From: Escherichia coli
Lineage (GTDB): Bacteria > Pseudomonadota > Gammaproteobacteria > Enterobacterales > Enterobacteriaceae
DNA: 64,000 nt
Assembly: GCF_003334355.1 (NCBI RefSeq)
Contig: NZ_QOWP01000002.1
Direction: 5' to 3' (one strand)
The notes below the pieces were generated by a model. It was not told the DNA's origin. It did not search any database and worked only from the letters and a program-made list of their open reading frames with translations. Position numbers and translations under genes: made by a program. Below, piece after piece: positions 12,945 to 27,924 of the stretch. Each line of letters opens with the position of its first letter. Position 1 is the stretch's first letter.

Positions 12945-13310
12945 TCACTCCGGCTTTTTGATATGTCGCTCGCAGAACTCAACAAGCCTGCTCATTAAGT
13001 AGCAGTAAGTCTCGTTGGCTCTTCCTGGTTCAACATCAACACCTACCCTTGAGCAGATATCGAATGCCATGTGAGCGCACTCATGGGCAATAGTAGATAG
13101 TTTGCCATTGAACACGCCTATCACATGCAAAACACCATTCTCGCTACTCATTGTATGAGACGCTCCGTTGGCGTCCGAGTCATGCACGTCAACGCCAAGT
13201 TTTTGATGCAGGCGTTGCCATTCTGGAAAGTCTCTACAAAACACAATTGTACCGCTCTCAAAGAGCGGAACGAGCATCTTTGGTACGTTTCCAATGTTAA
13301 CTTTTTTCAT
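12945..13310 (-). CDS. Hypothetical protein with HExxH motif (121 aa), possible small zinc-metallopeptidase-like protein
   Basis: Protein-like [27 protein letters not shown]... containing AHECAHM; occupies a gap not covered by other credible genes; AGGA upstream of ATG. Confidence 0.5.
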
Positions 13311-13340
13311 GGTATCCTGCGTAAAACTAAGGAGGTTGGT

Positions 13341-13835
13341 GTGTCTGATTCTATGAGTTACGCTGTGCTAGTTGCCGCAACTCTATTTCTGGGGATAGGG
13401 TTGCAGATTGCGTGGTTCTTTTTTTCTAGTTTTATTAAACGTAAAAGAATTGAATCAAGGATATCTGAGATTTCTATTGCTATAGGGAAAAATGCTGAAA
13501 ATCCAGAGAATGAGGCCTGCGCACTGAATTACCTTAAAGAAAAGTTTTCCCCTGAAAAATTTGAAAACAGAATTACTGATGCTCTTGGATTGGTAATATC
13601 AGTAATTCATATGCCACTAAGTTTGCTGATAACAGTGTGGTACTTCGCCATGATCGCCGGAAGAATATTTGGTTTCATGAATATAGAGCCTGTAGTTCTT
13701 TGGGTTCCAATGATACTGCAATTGTTGTTAAGCGTTGCTATCTTTATTTTTTCTGTTTTTATAAAAATTGTCTTCGGAAGATACCCCGGAGAAGCGAAGG
13801 GATTTAATAAAGAATTCATAAAAACTATAAAATAA
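13341..13835 (+). CDS. Hypothetical multi-pass membrane protein (~164 aa); candidate superinfection-exclusion protein by position (SieA-like locus)
   Basis: AGGAGG RBS then GTG 13341/ATG 13354; hydrophobic segments ([24 protein letters not shown]..., ...[20 protein letters not shown]..., ...[27 protein letters not shown]). The upstream extension to 13125 in the ORF track is rejected. Confidence 0.6.
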
Positions 13836-17801: not shown

Positions 17802-18255
17802 TTATTAGCTCCTCATATTTCGAACGAGGTAATTGATAGAGGGTGATTCCTACCGGTTTTCCGTTACTCATGTACGCATCATCAAGGTGACCAACACGGG
17901 TAGCGCCAAGCAAACGGATAATTGCCCGTCCGTATTTGGTGGTGTCAGGAACCATGGTGATGCTGTTAAGGAATGGTGAGTTTTCGAGAAGCCATTTGCA
18001 GAATAATCGATGCCCTTGCAGTGCATATTCTCCACGGAATCCGGGGTCATACACCGCATGGCATTCAACAACGCTATGCCAGAAGTTACGCACTTCATGA
18101 ACTCCAGCCAGCACTAATCCTTCGTAGATGCCGAGATATACCGCATCAGGCTTGATGTAGTATTTGTCTCCACTGTCTACGATATTTCCCGTGTTTGCCG
18201 GGTTGTTGAGGAATTCTGCAAGCTTCACCGGGTTATCGATGAGCTTTATGTGCAT
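17788..18255 (-). CDS. P22 gp14-like virion protein (155 aa)
   Basis: Position between the tail needle and gp7 as in P22. Confidence 0.65.
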   Translation of the reverse strand: MHIKLIDNPVKLAEFLNNPANTGNIVDSGDKYYIKPDAVYLGIYEGLVLAGVHEVRNFWHSVVECHAVYDPGFRGEYALQGHRLFCKWLLENSPFLNSITMVPDTTKYGRAIIRLLGATRVGHLDDAYMSNGKPVGITLYQLPRSKYEELINVST

Positions 18256-18962
18256 TAGTTGATTAATCCATGTGTTCGTAAGGCGTCTTCCAGTGCTTTG
18301 ATGCGCTGCCGCGCCTGCTGTAAACCTGTAGCCATAGCGGAAACTTCAGACTGCGTATACGTGGTACTGACCGTGTATGCCTGGTTAGCGTTGAATGCGC
18401 CGAGAAGTGCCGTTCCGGTTGCTGCTGTCCATCCTGTCTGACGAGCACCGATAACCTTGGTGCCGCCGACTGAATAGGATGTTGTTACGTTGAGGGGGGA
18501 TGCCAGCGATTGTGTTGCTGTGGCTGTTTTCGATACGTAATCGTCCTGCAATGCAGAAATATTTCCTTCAGCCTCCGTCACTCTACCATCGAGAGCACTG
18601 ACATCAGCCTGCAAGGTGACTATTTCACCTTCAGCCGTGGTTAGTCTGACATCCAGCGACGCGATTGCATTGGTATTTGCAGTAATACGGATTTCATGGT
18701 CGTCTACGTCGATGCGGAGCTGACGAATTCTTTCTTCGTGATCGACCAGAATCACATCCTGCTCATCGTTCCTGACCTGTGCATGATAAGCGCCCTGTCC
18801 GGCCTCGTTGGCCTTGTTAGCCACGTTACCAACATCAGCGCCCTGTGCGATAACGTACAGCAGATATGACTGCGAGAAGATATTGCGTGGAAGGATTGAT
18901 GTATCGAGCCGTGTAGCTTGGATGATTACCGGCACATTGAGATTCGAATCAGCCATTAACAT
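18255..18962 (-). CDS. Tail needle protein, P22 gp26-like
   Basis: Translation ...[43 protein letters not shown]... with trimeric coiled-coil heptads; closely resembles P22 gp26. True start probably the Met at 18956. Confidence 0.9.
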
Positions 18963-19494
18963 GCCTCCACGATTTACCAGACTGGATATTGTGAATCACC
19001 GTCTGACTGACACAGTATTTTTTAGCAAGCTCTCTTTGATTAACTCCCTTTGATTTCTTTATTTCTATTACTTGCTCATATGAGAGCTTTGAAATTGGAT
19101 TATTTTCTCCTTTTAAAGCCGGAAACTTCACCCTGCCTTGAGATGAGCAATGCTTCATATTCTCCTTTTGAGTACACCACTCTAAATTAGAAGCATTATT
19201 ATTTTTTCGGTTGTTATCTATGTGATTTATGAACGGCTTGCCTTCTGGATTGGGGACGAAAGCAAGAGCGACAAGCCTATGCACAAGCCATTTTACTTTA
19301 ACTCCATCAACACTAAGTGGCAAATATAGATAACCTTTATTATTCTCGTGTTGTTTTAGCCACCGACCCTTTCTGAGTTGCGTGCTGCCATGCGCAGCCT
19401 TAACAACACGTGAGTGAGAATATACTCGCCCATCCTCTGTTACGGCATATAAACCTTCATATCCAGGAATATCTTTTGCGTTTTCACTCAACAT
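18949..19494 (-). CDS. Free-standing HNH homing endonuclease (181 aa) inserted between gp10 and gp26
   Basis: Motifs [16 protein letters not shown] (NUMOD4-like), [25 protein letters not shown] (HNH) and a C-terminal HTH-like segment. Confidence 0.85.
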
Positions 19495-19515
19495 ATCTAC
19501 TCCTTTAGTTTCGAT

Positions 19516-20934
19516 TTATGTTACACGAATAGAAAGGCCTGATAATGTAACAGGACCTTTTGCAATAACTCTGAATTTAAATCCAATGAGGCGTCTAACT
19601 CGACCAACTTTTCGCCATAAAACGCGATTGTCATATACAAATGGTTTTTGTAATACGACCATTTGCTCACGACCGTAATTAATTCCATCTGTAGTTGCTG
19701 ATATAAATATTCTATCTATTCTATCACACACGCCGCCAGATGTTTCTAATTCAAGGTCATTTATTAAAGCGTTATCTGCCTTTATTAGAGGGGAATATAA
19801 AATATGCTCTTGTTGTTTTTCGTATTGTGAAGATATATCGAACTGCAATTTCCCGGTCACGGATTCCAGCTTATCGCCGCACGTTATCTGATTGCCTTCG
19901 TAAATGAAGTCGATAGCGCGGTACACATCGTCATACAAGCCAGTTTTCAACACACACCATTGCGGACCATTGGCGCTTGAAGATGCGTCGTACACGAGAA
20001 CATGGCGCGCAAGATGGATAATCAGCAACTCATGCGCATCAAATCGTAGAGACTCCATCACGCCATCAGCCAGTTCATCAGCAGTGTAGGAACGGAGGAT
20101 TTTCTCAATGCTCGCGCTGGCGATTGGTGATACCTGACCGGAGCCGATGATGTACACAGACGGCGCACCTGTTGCCGGATTGCTGATGAACGCATACGAA
20201 TCAGCAAACGGCGTTTTGCAGTAAGTTCCGGCGATGCCTTTTTGCACCATCAGTGATGGCTGTGCGACATACAAAGCAGCACCAACGGTGGTTGCGCCAG
20301 TCAGGGAGAAATATTCAATCGTCGATGAACCAAAGCAGACGATGAAGTCTCGCCATGTGCCGATACCGATGATGCCGTCCGGCTGCGACTCGGCACGATA
20401 TTGTGCGCTGTAACGGTCAGGATGCGATTCGTCTTCAAGGTCAGTGATAAACCATGAATCAGTGCCGTCTTTTGACCACGCATAACGCCCACGCAAGCGC
20501 GTAATGTCACGAACCGAACCTAACTCATACTGAGTGAATCCGCTATCTGCAGGCCAGTTTGAGACGGTTTTAACCGTGCCATCATAGCGATACTCGACCA
20601 GCTGACCGTTAACACCTACCGCCTGTGATGTCCGACCATGCGCCATTGATACGCGACCGCTTCCGGCAACATCACCGACTTCACTTTCTCCTTTGTACAG
20701 CTTGCCACCACACACGCGATAAACAGCACCCTGCGCCATGTTGTACTCGACGCCGCGAGATACACCGTTCACATCAGAACGTTTGGCAATGCCCGGGAAT
20801 GAGCGAAGATATCCGCTGCTGTTCAGGATTTCTTTGGGTGTGGCCAGCATATTCACTGGCAGATAGTCGATATAGTCGGCGTTTCGAAAGTCTTTGCCGA
20901 CACCTTTCATAAGCGGAAGTTGCTGAATCGGCAT
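19516..20934 (-). CDS. Tail hub / DNA stabilisation protein, P22 gp10-like (472 aa)
   Basis: 472 aa, gene order 4-10-26 as in P22. Confidence 0.85.
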   Translation of the reverse strand: MPIQQLPLMKGVGKDFRNADYIDYLPVNMLATPKEILNSSGYLRSFPGIAKRSDVNGVSRGVEYNMAQGAVYRVCGGKLYKGESEVGDVAGSGRVSMAHGRTSQAVGVNGQLVEYRYDGTVKTVSNWPADSGFTQYELGSVRDITRLRGRYAWSKDGTDSWFITDLEDESHPDRYSAQYRAESQPDGIIGIGTWRDFIVCFGSSTIEYFSLTGATTVGAALYVAQPSLMVQKGIAGTYCKTPFADSYAFISNPATGAPSVYIIGSGQVSPIASASIEKILRSYTADELADGVMESLRFDAHELLIIHLARHVLVYDASSSANGPQWCVLKTGLYDDVYRAIDFIYEGNQITCGDKLESVTGKLQFDISSQYEKQQEHILYSPLIKADNALINDLELETSGGVCDRIDRIFISATTDGINYGREQMVVLQKPFVYDNRVLWRKVGRVRRLIGFKFRVIAKGPVTLSGLSIRVT

Positions 20935-20943
20935 TTATTCACC

Positions 20944-21405
20944 TCACGTACTCGGATCATCTTTCTCGATGTAAAACCGATTCCACGTAAACGCGCTTTT
21001 GTTACCACTACCGCGAGGCATGTCATTTCGCCGCTCAAGTGGTGGTATTTTGGTTAAAGCGATGCAAATTGTCTGGTATGCACTGTCAGCAGCGGTAAGG
21101 AGAGCGTCTGACGGCTGAATGACGTTATCCATGCACACTTGCACAGCGAGTTTCAAGGCGACGCCATCATTTGCCCATGCAGGGATACCTGAATCATCGT
21201 CAGGTAACGGCATGATGCCGTTTTCTGTATCAGCAAACTGATATCCAAGCTCGATACCTTTAGCCTGCCATGCTGCCATCATGTCTTCGAGGTCATTAAT
21301 GGCATCTTCAATTGCCTGAGGGTCAGCATCTGTCAACGTGGCATTGGAATACAGCCCGGCTTTTCGTAAAGCCTTAAGAACGAGATCACCCTTCGTTTTC
21401 GCCAT
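20944..21405 (-). CDS. Head-to-tail adaptor, P22 gp4-like (153 aa)
   Basis: Translation MAKTKGDLVLKALRKAGLYSNATLTDADPQAIEDAINDLEDMMAAW... resembles P22 gp4. Confidence 0.85.
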   Translation of the reverse strand: MAKTKGDLVLKALRKAGLYSNATLTDADPQAIEDAINDLEDMMAAWQAKGIELGYQFADTENGIMPLPDDDSGIPAWANDGVALKLAVQVCMDNVIQPSDALLTAADSAYQTICIALTKIPPLERRNDMPRGSGNKSAFTWNRFYIEKDDPST

Positions 21406-26071: not shown

Positions 26072-27487
26072 TCAACCTACACCACAAGGAATTGAGTAAC
26101 TGGAATAGTCGGGTTGCGCAGCCGACTCCGGGCAATGCATACACATCATCAGCGCATCAGCCAGGTTAGGAGATGGAATACCGAGCTTCTGCTTCATTTC
26201 GACCTTAGTCATTAGCTCCAGCTTCCCGTTGTTATTGAATTTGCGCTGAATCTGCGTCAGTTCTGCAAACAGCTTCTCCAGCATATTCTCGCCTATCGCT
26301 TCTTTGTCGAAACTCAGCATGTCGTCGGGGTCTGCATACTCACCGTGAACAACCGCCCGATATGTCAGATACAGCCTGTCAGCCAGCGCGTAATAGAATT
26401 GCGCTCGCTTATTGCGGAATACATCGCCAATAGTGCGAACATTGTCGCCCTGTACGACTTCATCAGCCCATGCTCCGGCCTGATATGGCGCATCTTCATC
26501 GAATGGCGATTCGCTGCCCTTGAACATCGTGGCGGTGATTTTCTTGCCGGAGAACGCTTCCGTTGTCTGTCTGCGTAGCCCGGCACCAACACCATCACCA
26601 TCCCACAGGTAATGGTCAGCGCCGTCTTCAATCGCCAGCGAAGTAGCCCAGTCAGCACCCTCGTTGATGTCCATCAGCAGACCTTCGGCAATGCGCTTAA
26701 CTACCGAACCTTGACGCGATGCGTAACCTTTAGCATCTGGCCCTGTATCTGACGGGTCATGTGCAGAAACAACCGCGCCTTTCGCTTTCCATCCGAGTTT
26801 CTTGTGCGCATCGGTTGCGGCTTCAAGCCATTCACGTTTGATGATTGCCATATCACTTGCGCTTACCGGCTCACCAAGCCAGATGTGACGATACAGTGTC
26901 GGATTTCTGCGTTTACACTCTTCCATCTCCAGACGGAGAACTTCAGGAAAGTGCGGGTTGTCGGTGTAGTTCACCGTCAGCAGGCAAATATCATCGGGAG
27001 GATTTACAACGAATCGCTGATAGGTATCGTCGAGGATGTTCTTCGGGTTAAAGCTCACCCATATTTCGGAAAACGGCTTGCGGATGGTTGGGATCAGGAT
27101 ATCCCATGATTCCTTCGTTACCGCTTCCGCTTCTTCCACCCAGCAGATATCAATGCCTTCGAGCGATTTAATCTTCGTCGGGTTGTTTTTGATGCCGTAG
27201 AACATGAATTCAGCATTCGTTCCGAGATGACGGATCATTGAACGCTGAATTTCAAACTCAGCCGAATACCCTTCACGCTCGATGGTGTCTTCAAGCAACC
27301 GGATTACCGAATCGCTGATACTGTTTTGCAGTTCACGAGCACAGAGAATACGCACTGGCTGCCGACGCGCCGCTTCAACAAGCAGTCTCGCAATTGCCCA
27401 TGATTTACCGCTACCTCGACCGCCTTTGGCGACTTTGTAGCGATGCGCCTCAATGAACGGTTCAAAGATAGGATTAATCGAGGTCAT
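26072..27487 (-). CDS. Terminase large subunit (471 aa)
   Basis: Walker A (AKGGRGSGKSWAIARLL), conserved ...CWVEEAEAV... and C-terminal nuclease-type region; directly follows the small subunit. Confidence 0.9.
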   Translation of the reverse strand: MTSINPIFEPFIEAHRYKVAKGGRGSGKSWAIARLLVEAARRQPVRILCARELQNSISDSVIRLLEDTIEREGYSAEFEIQRSMIRHLGTNAEFMFYGIKNNPTKIKSLEGIDICWVEEAEAVTKESWDILIPTIRKPFSEIWVSFNPKNILDDTYQRFVVNPPDDICLLTVNYTDNPHFPEVLRLEMEECKRRNPTLYRHIWLGEPVSASDMAIIKREWLEAATDAHKKLGWKAKGAVVSAHDPSDTGPDAKGYASRQGSVVKRIAEGLLMDINEGADWATSLAIEDGADHYLWDGDGVGAGLRRQTTEAFSGKKITATMFKGSESPFDEDAPYQAGAWADEVVQGDNVRTIGDVFRNKRAQFYYALADRLYLTYRAVVHGEYADPDDMLSFDKEAIGENMLEKLFAELTQIQRKFNNNGKLELMTKVEMKQKLGIPSPNLADALMMCMHCPESAAQPDYSSYSIPCGVG

Positions 27488-27924
27488 TTTCCGAATAGAG
27501 TGCTCATCGGTGATGTTTCAATCTGGATTGCGCCGCCGTCTTTGCCTGTTAGCTCGTGATCAACCTTGTCGCGCCATTTATCCTTCTGTCGGTTCTTAAG
27601 CCAGAAGATGGCAGCGGTTGTATCAGGAGGGTAATACTTCTCAAGCGGAGTTTCGACAATTCTGTTTTCAATAACACGAATATCGATGTCTGGAGCCACG
27701 AAGCCCATAGCTCGTTGATAAAGACGATCACTAACTTCTGCATCAGCGACGGCCTTACCTTTTTTTATGGACTCCGAAAACTTAGGATAATCAAGCTTCC
27801 ACTTGTTAATAGTTGACTCACTGACTTCAAAGAAATCAGCAAGTTCTGCATCGGTGTAGCCCAGCAAGCACAGTTTGCGTGCCTGTTCGGCATACGCCTC
27901 TTGATACTTTGTTGGGCGTGCCAT
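27484..27924 (-). CDS. Terminase small subunit (146 aa)
   Basis: MARPTKYQEAYAEQARKLCLLGYTDAELADFFEVSESTINKWK... (HTH) immediately upstream of the large terminase. Confidence 0.8.
   Translation of the reverse strand: MARPTKYQEAYAEQARKLCLLGYTDAELADFFEVSESTINKWKLDYPKFSESIKKGKAVADAEVSDRLYQRAMGFVAPDIDIRVIENRIVETPLEKYYPPDTTAAIFWLKNRQKDKWRDKVDHELTGKDGGAIQIETSPMSTLFGK

Follow-up and report, generated by a model that had tools for sequence, protein, structure and literature searches.

A free-standing NUMOD4/HNH gene at the gp10/gp26 junction of a P22-like Escherichia coli prophage, and the diverged gp10 end that accompanies it

Work on free-standing homing endonucleases has dealt almost exclusively with virulent phages, T4, SPO1, T5 and ICP1 among them. 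Here we present an analysis of a candidate from a temperate setting, an open reading frame (ORF) of 181 amino acids (aa) lying between gp10 (tail hub) and gp26 (tail needle) of a P22-like prophage of Escherichia coli. The stretch of DNA analysed, 64,000 nucleotides (nt) of contig NZ_QOWP01000002.1 from assembly GCF_003334355.1, is referred to below as the window. We consider it likely, from the sequence comparisons set out here, that the ORF is a free-standing, I-HmuI-like homing endonuclease gene of the NUMOD4/HNH_3/helix-turn-helix (HTH) type, and that its pattern of occurrence reflects homing, current or recent.

The closest enzyme of known structure is I-HmuI of phage SPO1, which nicks one strand. 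The two proteins have an N-terminal beta-rich DNA-binding module, a beta-beta-alpha-metal HNH core and a C-terminal HTH in the same order, and the general-base His and the metal-binding Asn of I-HmuI are conserved in the window protein. They differ in that Asp74 of I-HmuI is replaced by Asn90, the two being only ~28% identical in sequence, and in genetic setting: I-HmuI is encoded in a group I intron of a DNA polymerase gene, whereas the window gene stands free between structural genes.

In genetic arrangement the nearest parallel is with the mobA-E and segA-G genes of the T-even phages (HNH and GIY-YIG endonucleases), which, like the window gene, are stand-alone and intergenic and lie beside essential genes within a host operon (PMC2988022). 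Free-standing T-even endonucleases cleave the endonuclease-free genome, often away from the insertion site, after which repair from the carrier co-converts the flanks and markers of the competitor are excluded; moreover, one endonuclease gene can be replaced by another at the same locus (PMC2988022). Flank co-conversion, a diverged neighbouring allele in carriers and differing endonucleases at one locus are likewise the features by which the window's locus resembles them (PMC2988022). The T-even systems, however, belong to virulent T4-like phages and are of the Mob type, while the window gene belongs to a temperate P22-like podovirus, here a prophage, and encodes a NUMOD4/HNH_3 protein with an HTH and a predicted homing activity.

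Nuclease genes at recombination boundaries beside essential genes have also been documented by Barth, Dunham and Seed in 2023 (PMC10448857), and the HNH_3 genes of that study, like ours, adjoin an essential structural gene at the boundary between a shared segment and a diverged flank. Their IPA-HNH class carries a C-terminal AP2 domain in place of the NUMOD4 and HTH modules seen here, their 'HEG island' exceeds 10 kb against a shared segment of less than 1 kb in the window, and P22-like phages are not mentioned in that paper. The terminase-associated HNH proteins of the HK97 gp74 type are a different matter, being terminase-adjacent and group-wide, whereas the gene between gp10 and gp26 is mostly absent. 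Full-text literature searches returned no description of an HNH insertion at the gp10/gp26 junction. The insertion adds an uncharacterised case to a well-known class of phage parasite and does not amount to a new kind of system; though clean, the comparative picture would not surprise specialists.

The insertion and its protein

A first-pass annotation of the window had described a 181-aa NUMOD4/HNH ORF between the tail hub and needle genes and had taken it for a free-standing homing endonuclease gene inserted there. Pfam and PHROGs bear out the domain assignments and the position, and comparison with relatives bears out the insert, as a precise 557-bp indel that is absent from most P22-like phages. 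The insertion is composed of a 21-nt spacer, ATCGAAACTAAAGGAGTAGAT, followed by the HNH ORF (Table 1). In the insert-free phages Sf6, HK620 and Dewey the TAA of gp10 overlaps the ATG of gp26 (TAATG), an overlap found also in UPF_BP1, which is insert-free at this junction and has its HNH gene elsewhere; in ST104, an insert-free relative of P22, the TAA lies three bases before the ATG.

The HNH ORF is a separate ORF between host genes. Despite the insertion, gp10 keeps its full length of 472 aa, its end lying 21 nt ahead of the HNH ORF, and at the other end the last HNH codons cross the old TAATG, with the stop TGA (18949-18951) lying 8 nt into gp26. The first-pass annotation had put the overlap with the needle gene at 14 nt, which holds for the first in-frame ATG, at 18962, but not for the conserved gp26 start (MADSNLN...) two codons downstream at 18956, which gives an 8-nt overlap and matches RefSeq in related prophages. 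The GGAGG within the last HNH codons is likely to serve as the ribosome-binding site of gp26; supplied by the cassette, it would replace the original coupling of gp10 stop and gp26 start.

Several other origins and signals were considered. A group I intron or structured RNA around the gene was rejected, as Rfam, scanned over 18200-21000 at E <= 1, yielded no intron or other RNA family and one chance snoRNA match only. A transposon-like origin was rejected as well, since the ends of the insert bear no direct or inverted repeats and no target duplication, and the protein has no transposase domain. Promoter-like sites in the cassette are fewer than in shuffled sequence, and no terminator was found inside it. 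Also rejected was an RNA hairpin hiding the HNH ribosome-binding site, the predicted fold being no better than those of shuffles (z -0.9).

RefSeq labels the 181-aa protein 'NUMOD4 domain-containing protein', and no curated NCBIfam family was found for it. PHROGs assigns it to phrog_59, HNH endonuclease (3e-58), and the PADLOC 'homing endonuclease' model matches it at 8e-27, this generic model being the only one among the defence-system models to do so. By sequence, the sole significant solved relative is I-HmuI (1U3E; E 2.3e-12, aa 7-152). An AlphaFold model built from 36 homologues (mean predicted local distance difference test score 94.7) shows beta strands as far as residue 70, then a beta-beta-alpha core, and ends in three helices; in a Foldseek search of the PDB 1U3E alone fell below E 0.001 (E 1.8e-8, full length, 183 aligned columns). 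His91 and Asn112 align in sequence with His75 and Asn96 of I-HmuI, and His72, His91, Asn103, Asn112 and His115 are invariant in the 36-sequence alignment. The family is very large: a cut-off of E <= 0.001 yields 165,383 cluster representatives and one of E <= 1e-10 yields 79,029. It matches 1,895 phage records, including Enterococcus, Lactococcus, Bacillus, Staphylococcus, T5-like and other phages. Because an identical protein occurs in at least seven E. coli prophages and the family is so large, the ORF is not a chance one.

The diverged gp10 end and the carriers

Rather than being a universal, syntenic gene of P22-like phages with a structural role, as the first-pass annotation had allowed that it might be, the ORF is missing from P22, ST104, Sf6, HK620, Dewey and most other P22-like phages. 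Among the phage records that match the region, only Escherichia phage HZ41 has an insert at the gp10/gp26 site. We searched 5,426 complete E. coli genomes, 919 of which have a P22-like gp10 5' part; the HNH-linked gp10 3' allele is present in 56 of the 919 and thus absent from ~94% of these loci, and the exact window-type cassette occurs in 16 complete genomes. The site is fixed, and close relatives sporadically have or lack the insertion there. Related NUMOD4/HNH genes, 38-50% identical, stand at other positions in phages ST-35, N7, 29485, Louie and Dewey (in the last at 6711-7071, beside the major head protein gene), so that P22-like phages bear several endonuclease insertion sites.

Comparison of the gp10-gp26 junction among related phages, which the first-pass annotation had proposed as a check, revealed a diverged gp10 3' end co-transferred with the 557-bp indel. 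In the window and HZ41 the last ~290-320 nt of gp10 (from about codon 367 to codon 472) are strongly unlike those of every insert-free phage compared, with ~65% aa and ~50-58% nt identity to the canonical allele, whereas the insert-free phages are mutually close in this segment, even when E. coli phages are compared with Salmonella phages. Between the window and HK620, the first 1080 nt of gp10 differ with a synonymous distance (dS) of 0.22 and a nonsynonymous distance (dN) of 0.006, but in the 3' segment the proportion of differing synonymous sites (pS) is 0.96, which is saturated, and dN reaches 0.32. Between HK620 and ST104, by comparison, the 5' 1080 nt give dS 1.41 and dN 0.056 and the 3' segment a dN of 0.066. 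With the exception of HZ41, no phage record has a gp10 C-terminus more than 68% identical to that of the window.

The composition of the region is equally distinct. Across 18950-19850 the GC content drops from ~0.52 to 0.35-0.40, with 0.35 in the gp10 3' end, and at third codon positions the diverged segment has a GC content of 0.19 against 0.57 for the canonical allele. In every IMG/VR locus whose GC content was inspected, the cassette forms an AT-rich island within a 50% GC backbone; an AT-rich home lineage for it was sought and not found among the phage records, where HZ41 alone carries it, or among these loci. Where codons encode the same amino acid in both alleles, the share that differ, 0.66-0.72, matches what the two codon usages, sampled independently, would give (z -0.8 to 0.5). 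The idea that the gp10 end had been deliberately over-recoded, so as to evade cleavage or recombination, was rejected on this account: the divergence is old and compositional, not targeted. The segment is accordingly old and foreign, with its origin in a much more AT-rich background, and it is likely to represent a co-conversion tract, a cleavage-resistant allele, or both.

Different HNH genes share this junction. Six variants, all full length and at 50-58% identity to the window's protein, comprise v1 (WP_021514124.1, the window's variant), v2 (WP_000947776.1), v3 (WP_042048397.1) and the cluster representatives P0004, P0006 and P0020. Common to all six are the N-terminus (MLSE...), a stop inside the gp26 start and the spacer, which is kept also before the HNH gene of UPF_BP1; the WRHVNG C-terminus is found in v1-v3 and P0006, while P0004 and P0020 keep a VNG-type end only. 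Their gp10 ends fall into the same diverged class, 84-99% identical in amino acids within the class and 62-67% to the canonical allele, and yet the backbones upstream vary. The same cassette type occurs on HK620-type (E. coli) and ST104-type (Salmonella) gp10 backbones, as is the case for v2; one v3-like locus has a gp10 backbone only 74% identical in protein; and the P0006 locus combines a P22/ST104-type gp10 5' part (dS 0.33 to ST104, 1.08 to the window) with a 3' end near that of the window (dS 0.14).

Wherever it could be read, the linkage of the HNH gene with the diverged end of gp10 was complete. IMG/VR yielded 28 loci with the diverged end, of which 26 are readable past gp10, and the spacer and HNH ORF are present in 26/26; by type, 14 are v1-like (one of them IS1-interrupted), 10 are v2 and 3 are v3-like. 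The linkage extends to all inspected E. coli carriers and to contigs of the three further variants, and no HNH-free copy of the diverged end was found among the 26 evaluable IMG/VR loci and the inspected E. coli genomes. One locus, IMGVR_UViG_2861079508_000003, was considered as an HNH-free diverged allele and rejected, its HNH gene being interrupted by an IS1 insertion: a 768-bp insertion with an 8-bp duplication lies at 2506-3273, after HNH codon 5, and its end presumably corresponds to an IS1 inverted repeat. In E. coli M160133 (NZ_CP022164.1), RefSeq annotates an IS1A transposase inside the HNH match.

Nine v1 carriers (the window, HZ41 and seven E. coli prophages) were aligned. Their mean pairwise nucleotide distances are only 0.5% in the HNH gene and 1.5% in the gp10 3' part, against 5.9% in the gp10 5' part on one side and 13.4% over the first 170 nt of gp26 on the other. 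The HNH protein is the same as the window's in 7 of 8 E. coli carriers (0-5 nt differences), and the eighth has one amino-acid change. The left edge of the shared tract lies at about gp10 nt 1100 (~codon 367) for the window, MMC-J-0105 and the two variant-2 loci, and at about nt 1131 (~codon 377) in HZ41 and five other carriers; in carrier AH19B041 it is mosaic. On the right side polymorphism returns within ~25 nt of the HNH stop. Beyond the cassette the carriers differ: their needle genes come in three lengths (702, 849 and 954 nt), and gp4 and coat in several types. Two degraded prophages, in E. coli 2017.18.04CC and E. coli EC556, retain the HNH gene and the diverged gp10 end, although these prophages show either a gp10 fused to a portal fragment or truncated needle, gp4 and terminase genes; the HNH gene is intact in EC556 and has one amino-acid change in 2017.18.04CC.

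A related arrangement is seen in the Salmonella phage UPF_BP1 (NC_047875.1), in which a related HNH gene lies between gp4 and gp10 (4463-5244, minus strand). Its product is 54% identical in amino acids to the window's HNH protein, but the first 46 aa are nearly identical and the spacer and ribosome-binding site are the same. Upstream of it is a 31-codon gp10 5' remnant ending in stops, and downstream is a recoded, full-length gp10 start (MAIQQLPLMKGLGKSAV...) that overlaps the HNH 3' end; the RefSeq annotation of gp10 in this phage seemingly starts 36 codons late. UPF_BP1 thus seems to offer another example of an HNH gene that brings along a diverged gp10 portion of its own, and the N-terminus and spacer shared with it are signs of domain shuffling among related HNH genes.

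Homing and the alternatives

The low-diversity cassette, taken with the diverged gp10 end, reads as the footprint of intron-less homing with co-conversion. Having neither promoter nor terminator of its own, the HNH gene would, as its layout suggests, share the transcript of the late structural genes, with its own AAGGAG directing translation. An HNH-free relative in the same cell, whether through co-infection or through infection or induction in a lysogen, would provide the opportunity for cleavage. The enzyme would then nick or cut the canonical sequence in or near the gp10 3' end or at the gp10/gp26 junction, a placement suggested because the shared tract is long on the gp10 side and very short on the gp26 side, and recombinational repair would copy the HNH gene from the HNH-bearing genome, and the neighbouring gp10 3' end with it. 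The carrier itself would be spared, its gp10 segment being too diverged to be cut, and the diverged end would act both as the co-converted piece and as the carrier's protection. The cassette does little harm, as its essential neighbours gp10 and gp26 are kept working.

Certain points weigh against this account. The HNH activity and the target site are both deduced; Asn90 occupies the position of the I-HmuI metal ligand Asp74, though Asn is the nearly invariant norm of the family; and the shared tract on the gp26 side, <=25 nt in some carriers, fits cleavage on the gp10 side without proving it. P22-like phages are, moreover, highly mosaic anyway, and ordinary recombination could yield part of the pattern. 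Finally, the HNH gene is tolerated in broken form: since IS1 interrupts it in two genomes, it is dispensable and some copies are decaying.

These last points also lend themselves to a rival explanation, which we regard as unlikely, that the HNH protein is inactive or non-specific and the gene a passive passenger spread by ordinary mosaicism, perhaps together with a selected gp10 C-terminal module. The structural clusters of P22-like phages are indeed mosaic, as the variable needle, gp4 and coat types of the carriers attest, the gp10 end is ~35% different in protein and could itself be the selected unit, and IS1-disrupted copies of the HNH gene persist. A passenger, however, would not be expected to have the same protein in 7 of 8 E. 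coli carriers with all catalytic positions intact, nor six diverged variants at one site that are all full length; and a selected gp10 module should sometimes have shed a useless 557-bp passenger, whereas the 26 evaluable IMG/VR loci and the inspected E. coli genomes contain no diverged end without it. It is less probable still that the gene is a domesticated weapon whose main role is to cut competing P22-like phages, by marker exclusion or superinfection interference, instead of its own spread. The probable target would lie in an essential and highly conserved tail-hub gene of relatives, the prophage has a second HNH_3 gene in its early-left region, and marker exclusion by free-standing endonucleases is documented in T-even phages (PMC2988022). 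Expression in a lysogen is nevertheless unlikely for a late-operon gene with no promoter of its own, and no defence-system model other than the generic 'homing endonuclease' is matched; such interference is in any case compatible with homing, as a consequence of the same activity and not an alternative to it.

We give next to no credence to a role in assembly or packaging, in which the HNH protein would assist the terminase or virion completion as do the HNH proteins of HK97-like cos phages. The gene does lie within the virion assembly cluster, but it is ~6.5 kb from the terminase ORFs and not adjacent to them, and its architecture is that of an I-HmuI-type site-specific enzyme with two DNA-binding modules. 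P22-like phages, furthermore, package by a headful mechanism. The sporadic distribution excludes such a role in practice, because P22, Sf6 and HK620 assemble normally without the gene, which is also missing from ~94% of the P22-like gp10 loci in E. coli.

With homing as the preferred explanation, a further proposal can be put forward, though we hold it to be rather doubtful: that the HNH gene makes up, with the recoded final ~100 codons of gp10, a long-lived module of drive and resistant target, with at least six endonuclease variants, that moves between E. coli-type and Salmonella-type phages. If this were true, the strategy would recur in UPF_BP1, whose related HNH gene carries a recoded gp10 5' end; an endonuclease family specialised on one virion gene would be steering gp10 alleles in temperate enterobacterial phages and prophages; and resident prophages might turn the module against incoming relatives.

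Apart from this proposal, the cassette accounts for one mosaic boundary inside gp10 and provides a clean natural case in temperate P22-like phages, for which the genetics of P22, Sf6 and HK620 are very tractable. With its defined 557-bp insert, its sharply bounded stretch of diverged gp10, several endonuclease variants at one site and an isolated carrier, HZ41, it could serve as a simple system for measuring homing, co-conversion and marker exclusion between prophages and incoming phages. It also bears on annotation, in that the 'NUMOD4 domain-containing protein' of these prophages would be encoded by a mobile endonuclease gene and would play no part in virion structure.

Prophage setting and the other nuclease genes

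The ~35 kb around the HNH ORF is a P22-like prophage of E. coli that adjoins tRNA-Arg(CCT), with the host genes dsdXA and emrKY on its far side. In addition to the genes in Table 1, the prophage encodes tailspike, ejection proteins, coat and portal, and its O-acetyltransferase-like and SieA-like genes are typical of the lysogenic-conversion and exclusion cargo of P22-like prophages. The backbone part of gp10 is 93-97% identical to that of HNH-free and HNH-bearing relatives alike.

Table 1. Coordinates of the features discussed, in window positions
Feature	Position	Strand	Details
tRNA-Arg(CCT)	7776-7850		adjoins the prophage
Integrase	7976-9166		prophage
O-acetyltransferase-like gene	9505-10284		prophage cargo
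SieA-like superinfection exclusion gene	13125-13832		prophage cargo
gp26 tail needle	18255..18956	-	downstream of HNH ORF; phrog_1219, 6e-126; counted from conserved ATG
HNH homing-endonuclease-like ORF	18949..19494	-	ATG start; 181 aa; identical to RefSeq WP_021514124.1
557-bp insertion proper	18959..19515	-	between gp10 stop codon and conserved TAATG; alignment and blastn
GGAGG, likely gp26 ribosome-binding site	18964..18968	-	in last HNH codons (W-R-H-V-N-G), 7 nt before gp26 ATG
C-terminal helix-turn-helix (HTH_3)	18973-19065	-	aa 144-174; Pfam, weak, 0.008
HNH_3 domain (PF13392)	19156-19287	-	aa 70-113; Pfam 1.7e-10
Asn112 codon (predicted catalytic)	19159-19161	-	alignment with I-HmuI
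His91 codon (predicted catalytic)	19222-19224	-	alignment with I-HmuI
NUMOD4 domain	19315-19476	-	aa 7-60; Pfam 5.6e-11
21-nt spacer	19495..19515	-	bears the Shine-Dalgarno of the HNH gene
AAGGAG, HNH Shine-Dalgarno	19500-19505	-	within spacer
gp10 (tail hub; 'head closure Hc3' in PHROGs)	19516-20934	-	upstream of HNH ORF; phrog_578, 8e-216; 472 aa
Diverged AT-rich gp10 3' end	19516..19834	-	accompanies HNH gene
gp10 backbone 5' part	19835..20934	-	ordinary E. coli/Shigella-type sequence
Terminase ORFs	26072-27924		prophage
Rha + ANT/KilAC antirepressor	32682-33404	-	domain matches
Small Rha-type ORF	33439-33903	-	155 aa; 24-residue Rha fragment at N-terminus
cI-like repressor	38631-39500		prophage
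Second HNH_3 gene	39746-40276	+	177 aa; Pfam 4.4e-15; phrog_99, 5e-66; early-left region, downstream of cI-like repressor

The first-pass annotation had counted three putative nuclease genes in the prophage, of which two are clear HNH genes and the third is a doubtful nuclease. What it called an HNH-AP2 gene at pL does encode an HNH_3 protein, a distant relation of the one encoded between gp10 and gp26, but Pfam finds no AP2 domain in it. Its Rha-nuclease fusion is weak: two adjacent ORFs (32682-33404 and 33439-33903) both open with Rha-type N-termini, but the C-terminus of the smaller ORF has marginal matches only, to DUF559 and REase_MTES_1575 (Pfam E ~0.006-0.007), along with a match at 9e-9 over 50 residues to the PADLOC model mREase_II, a methyl-directed restriction enzyme model. 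This smaller ORF may be a gene fusion or a remnant.

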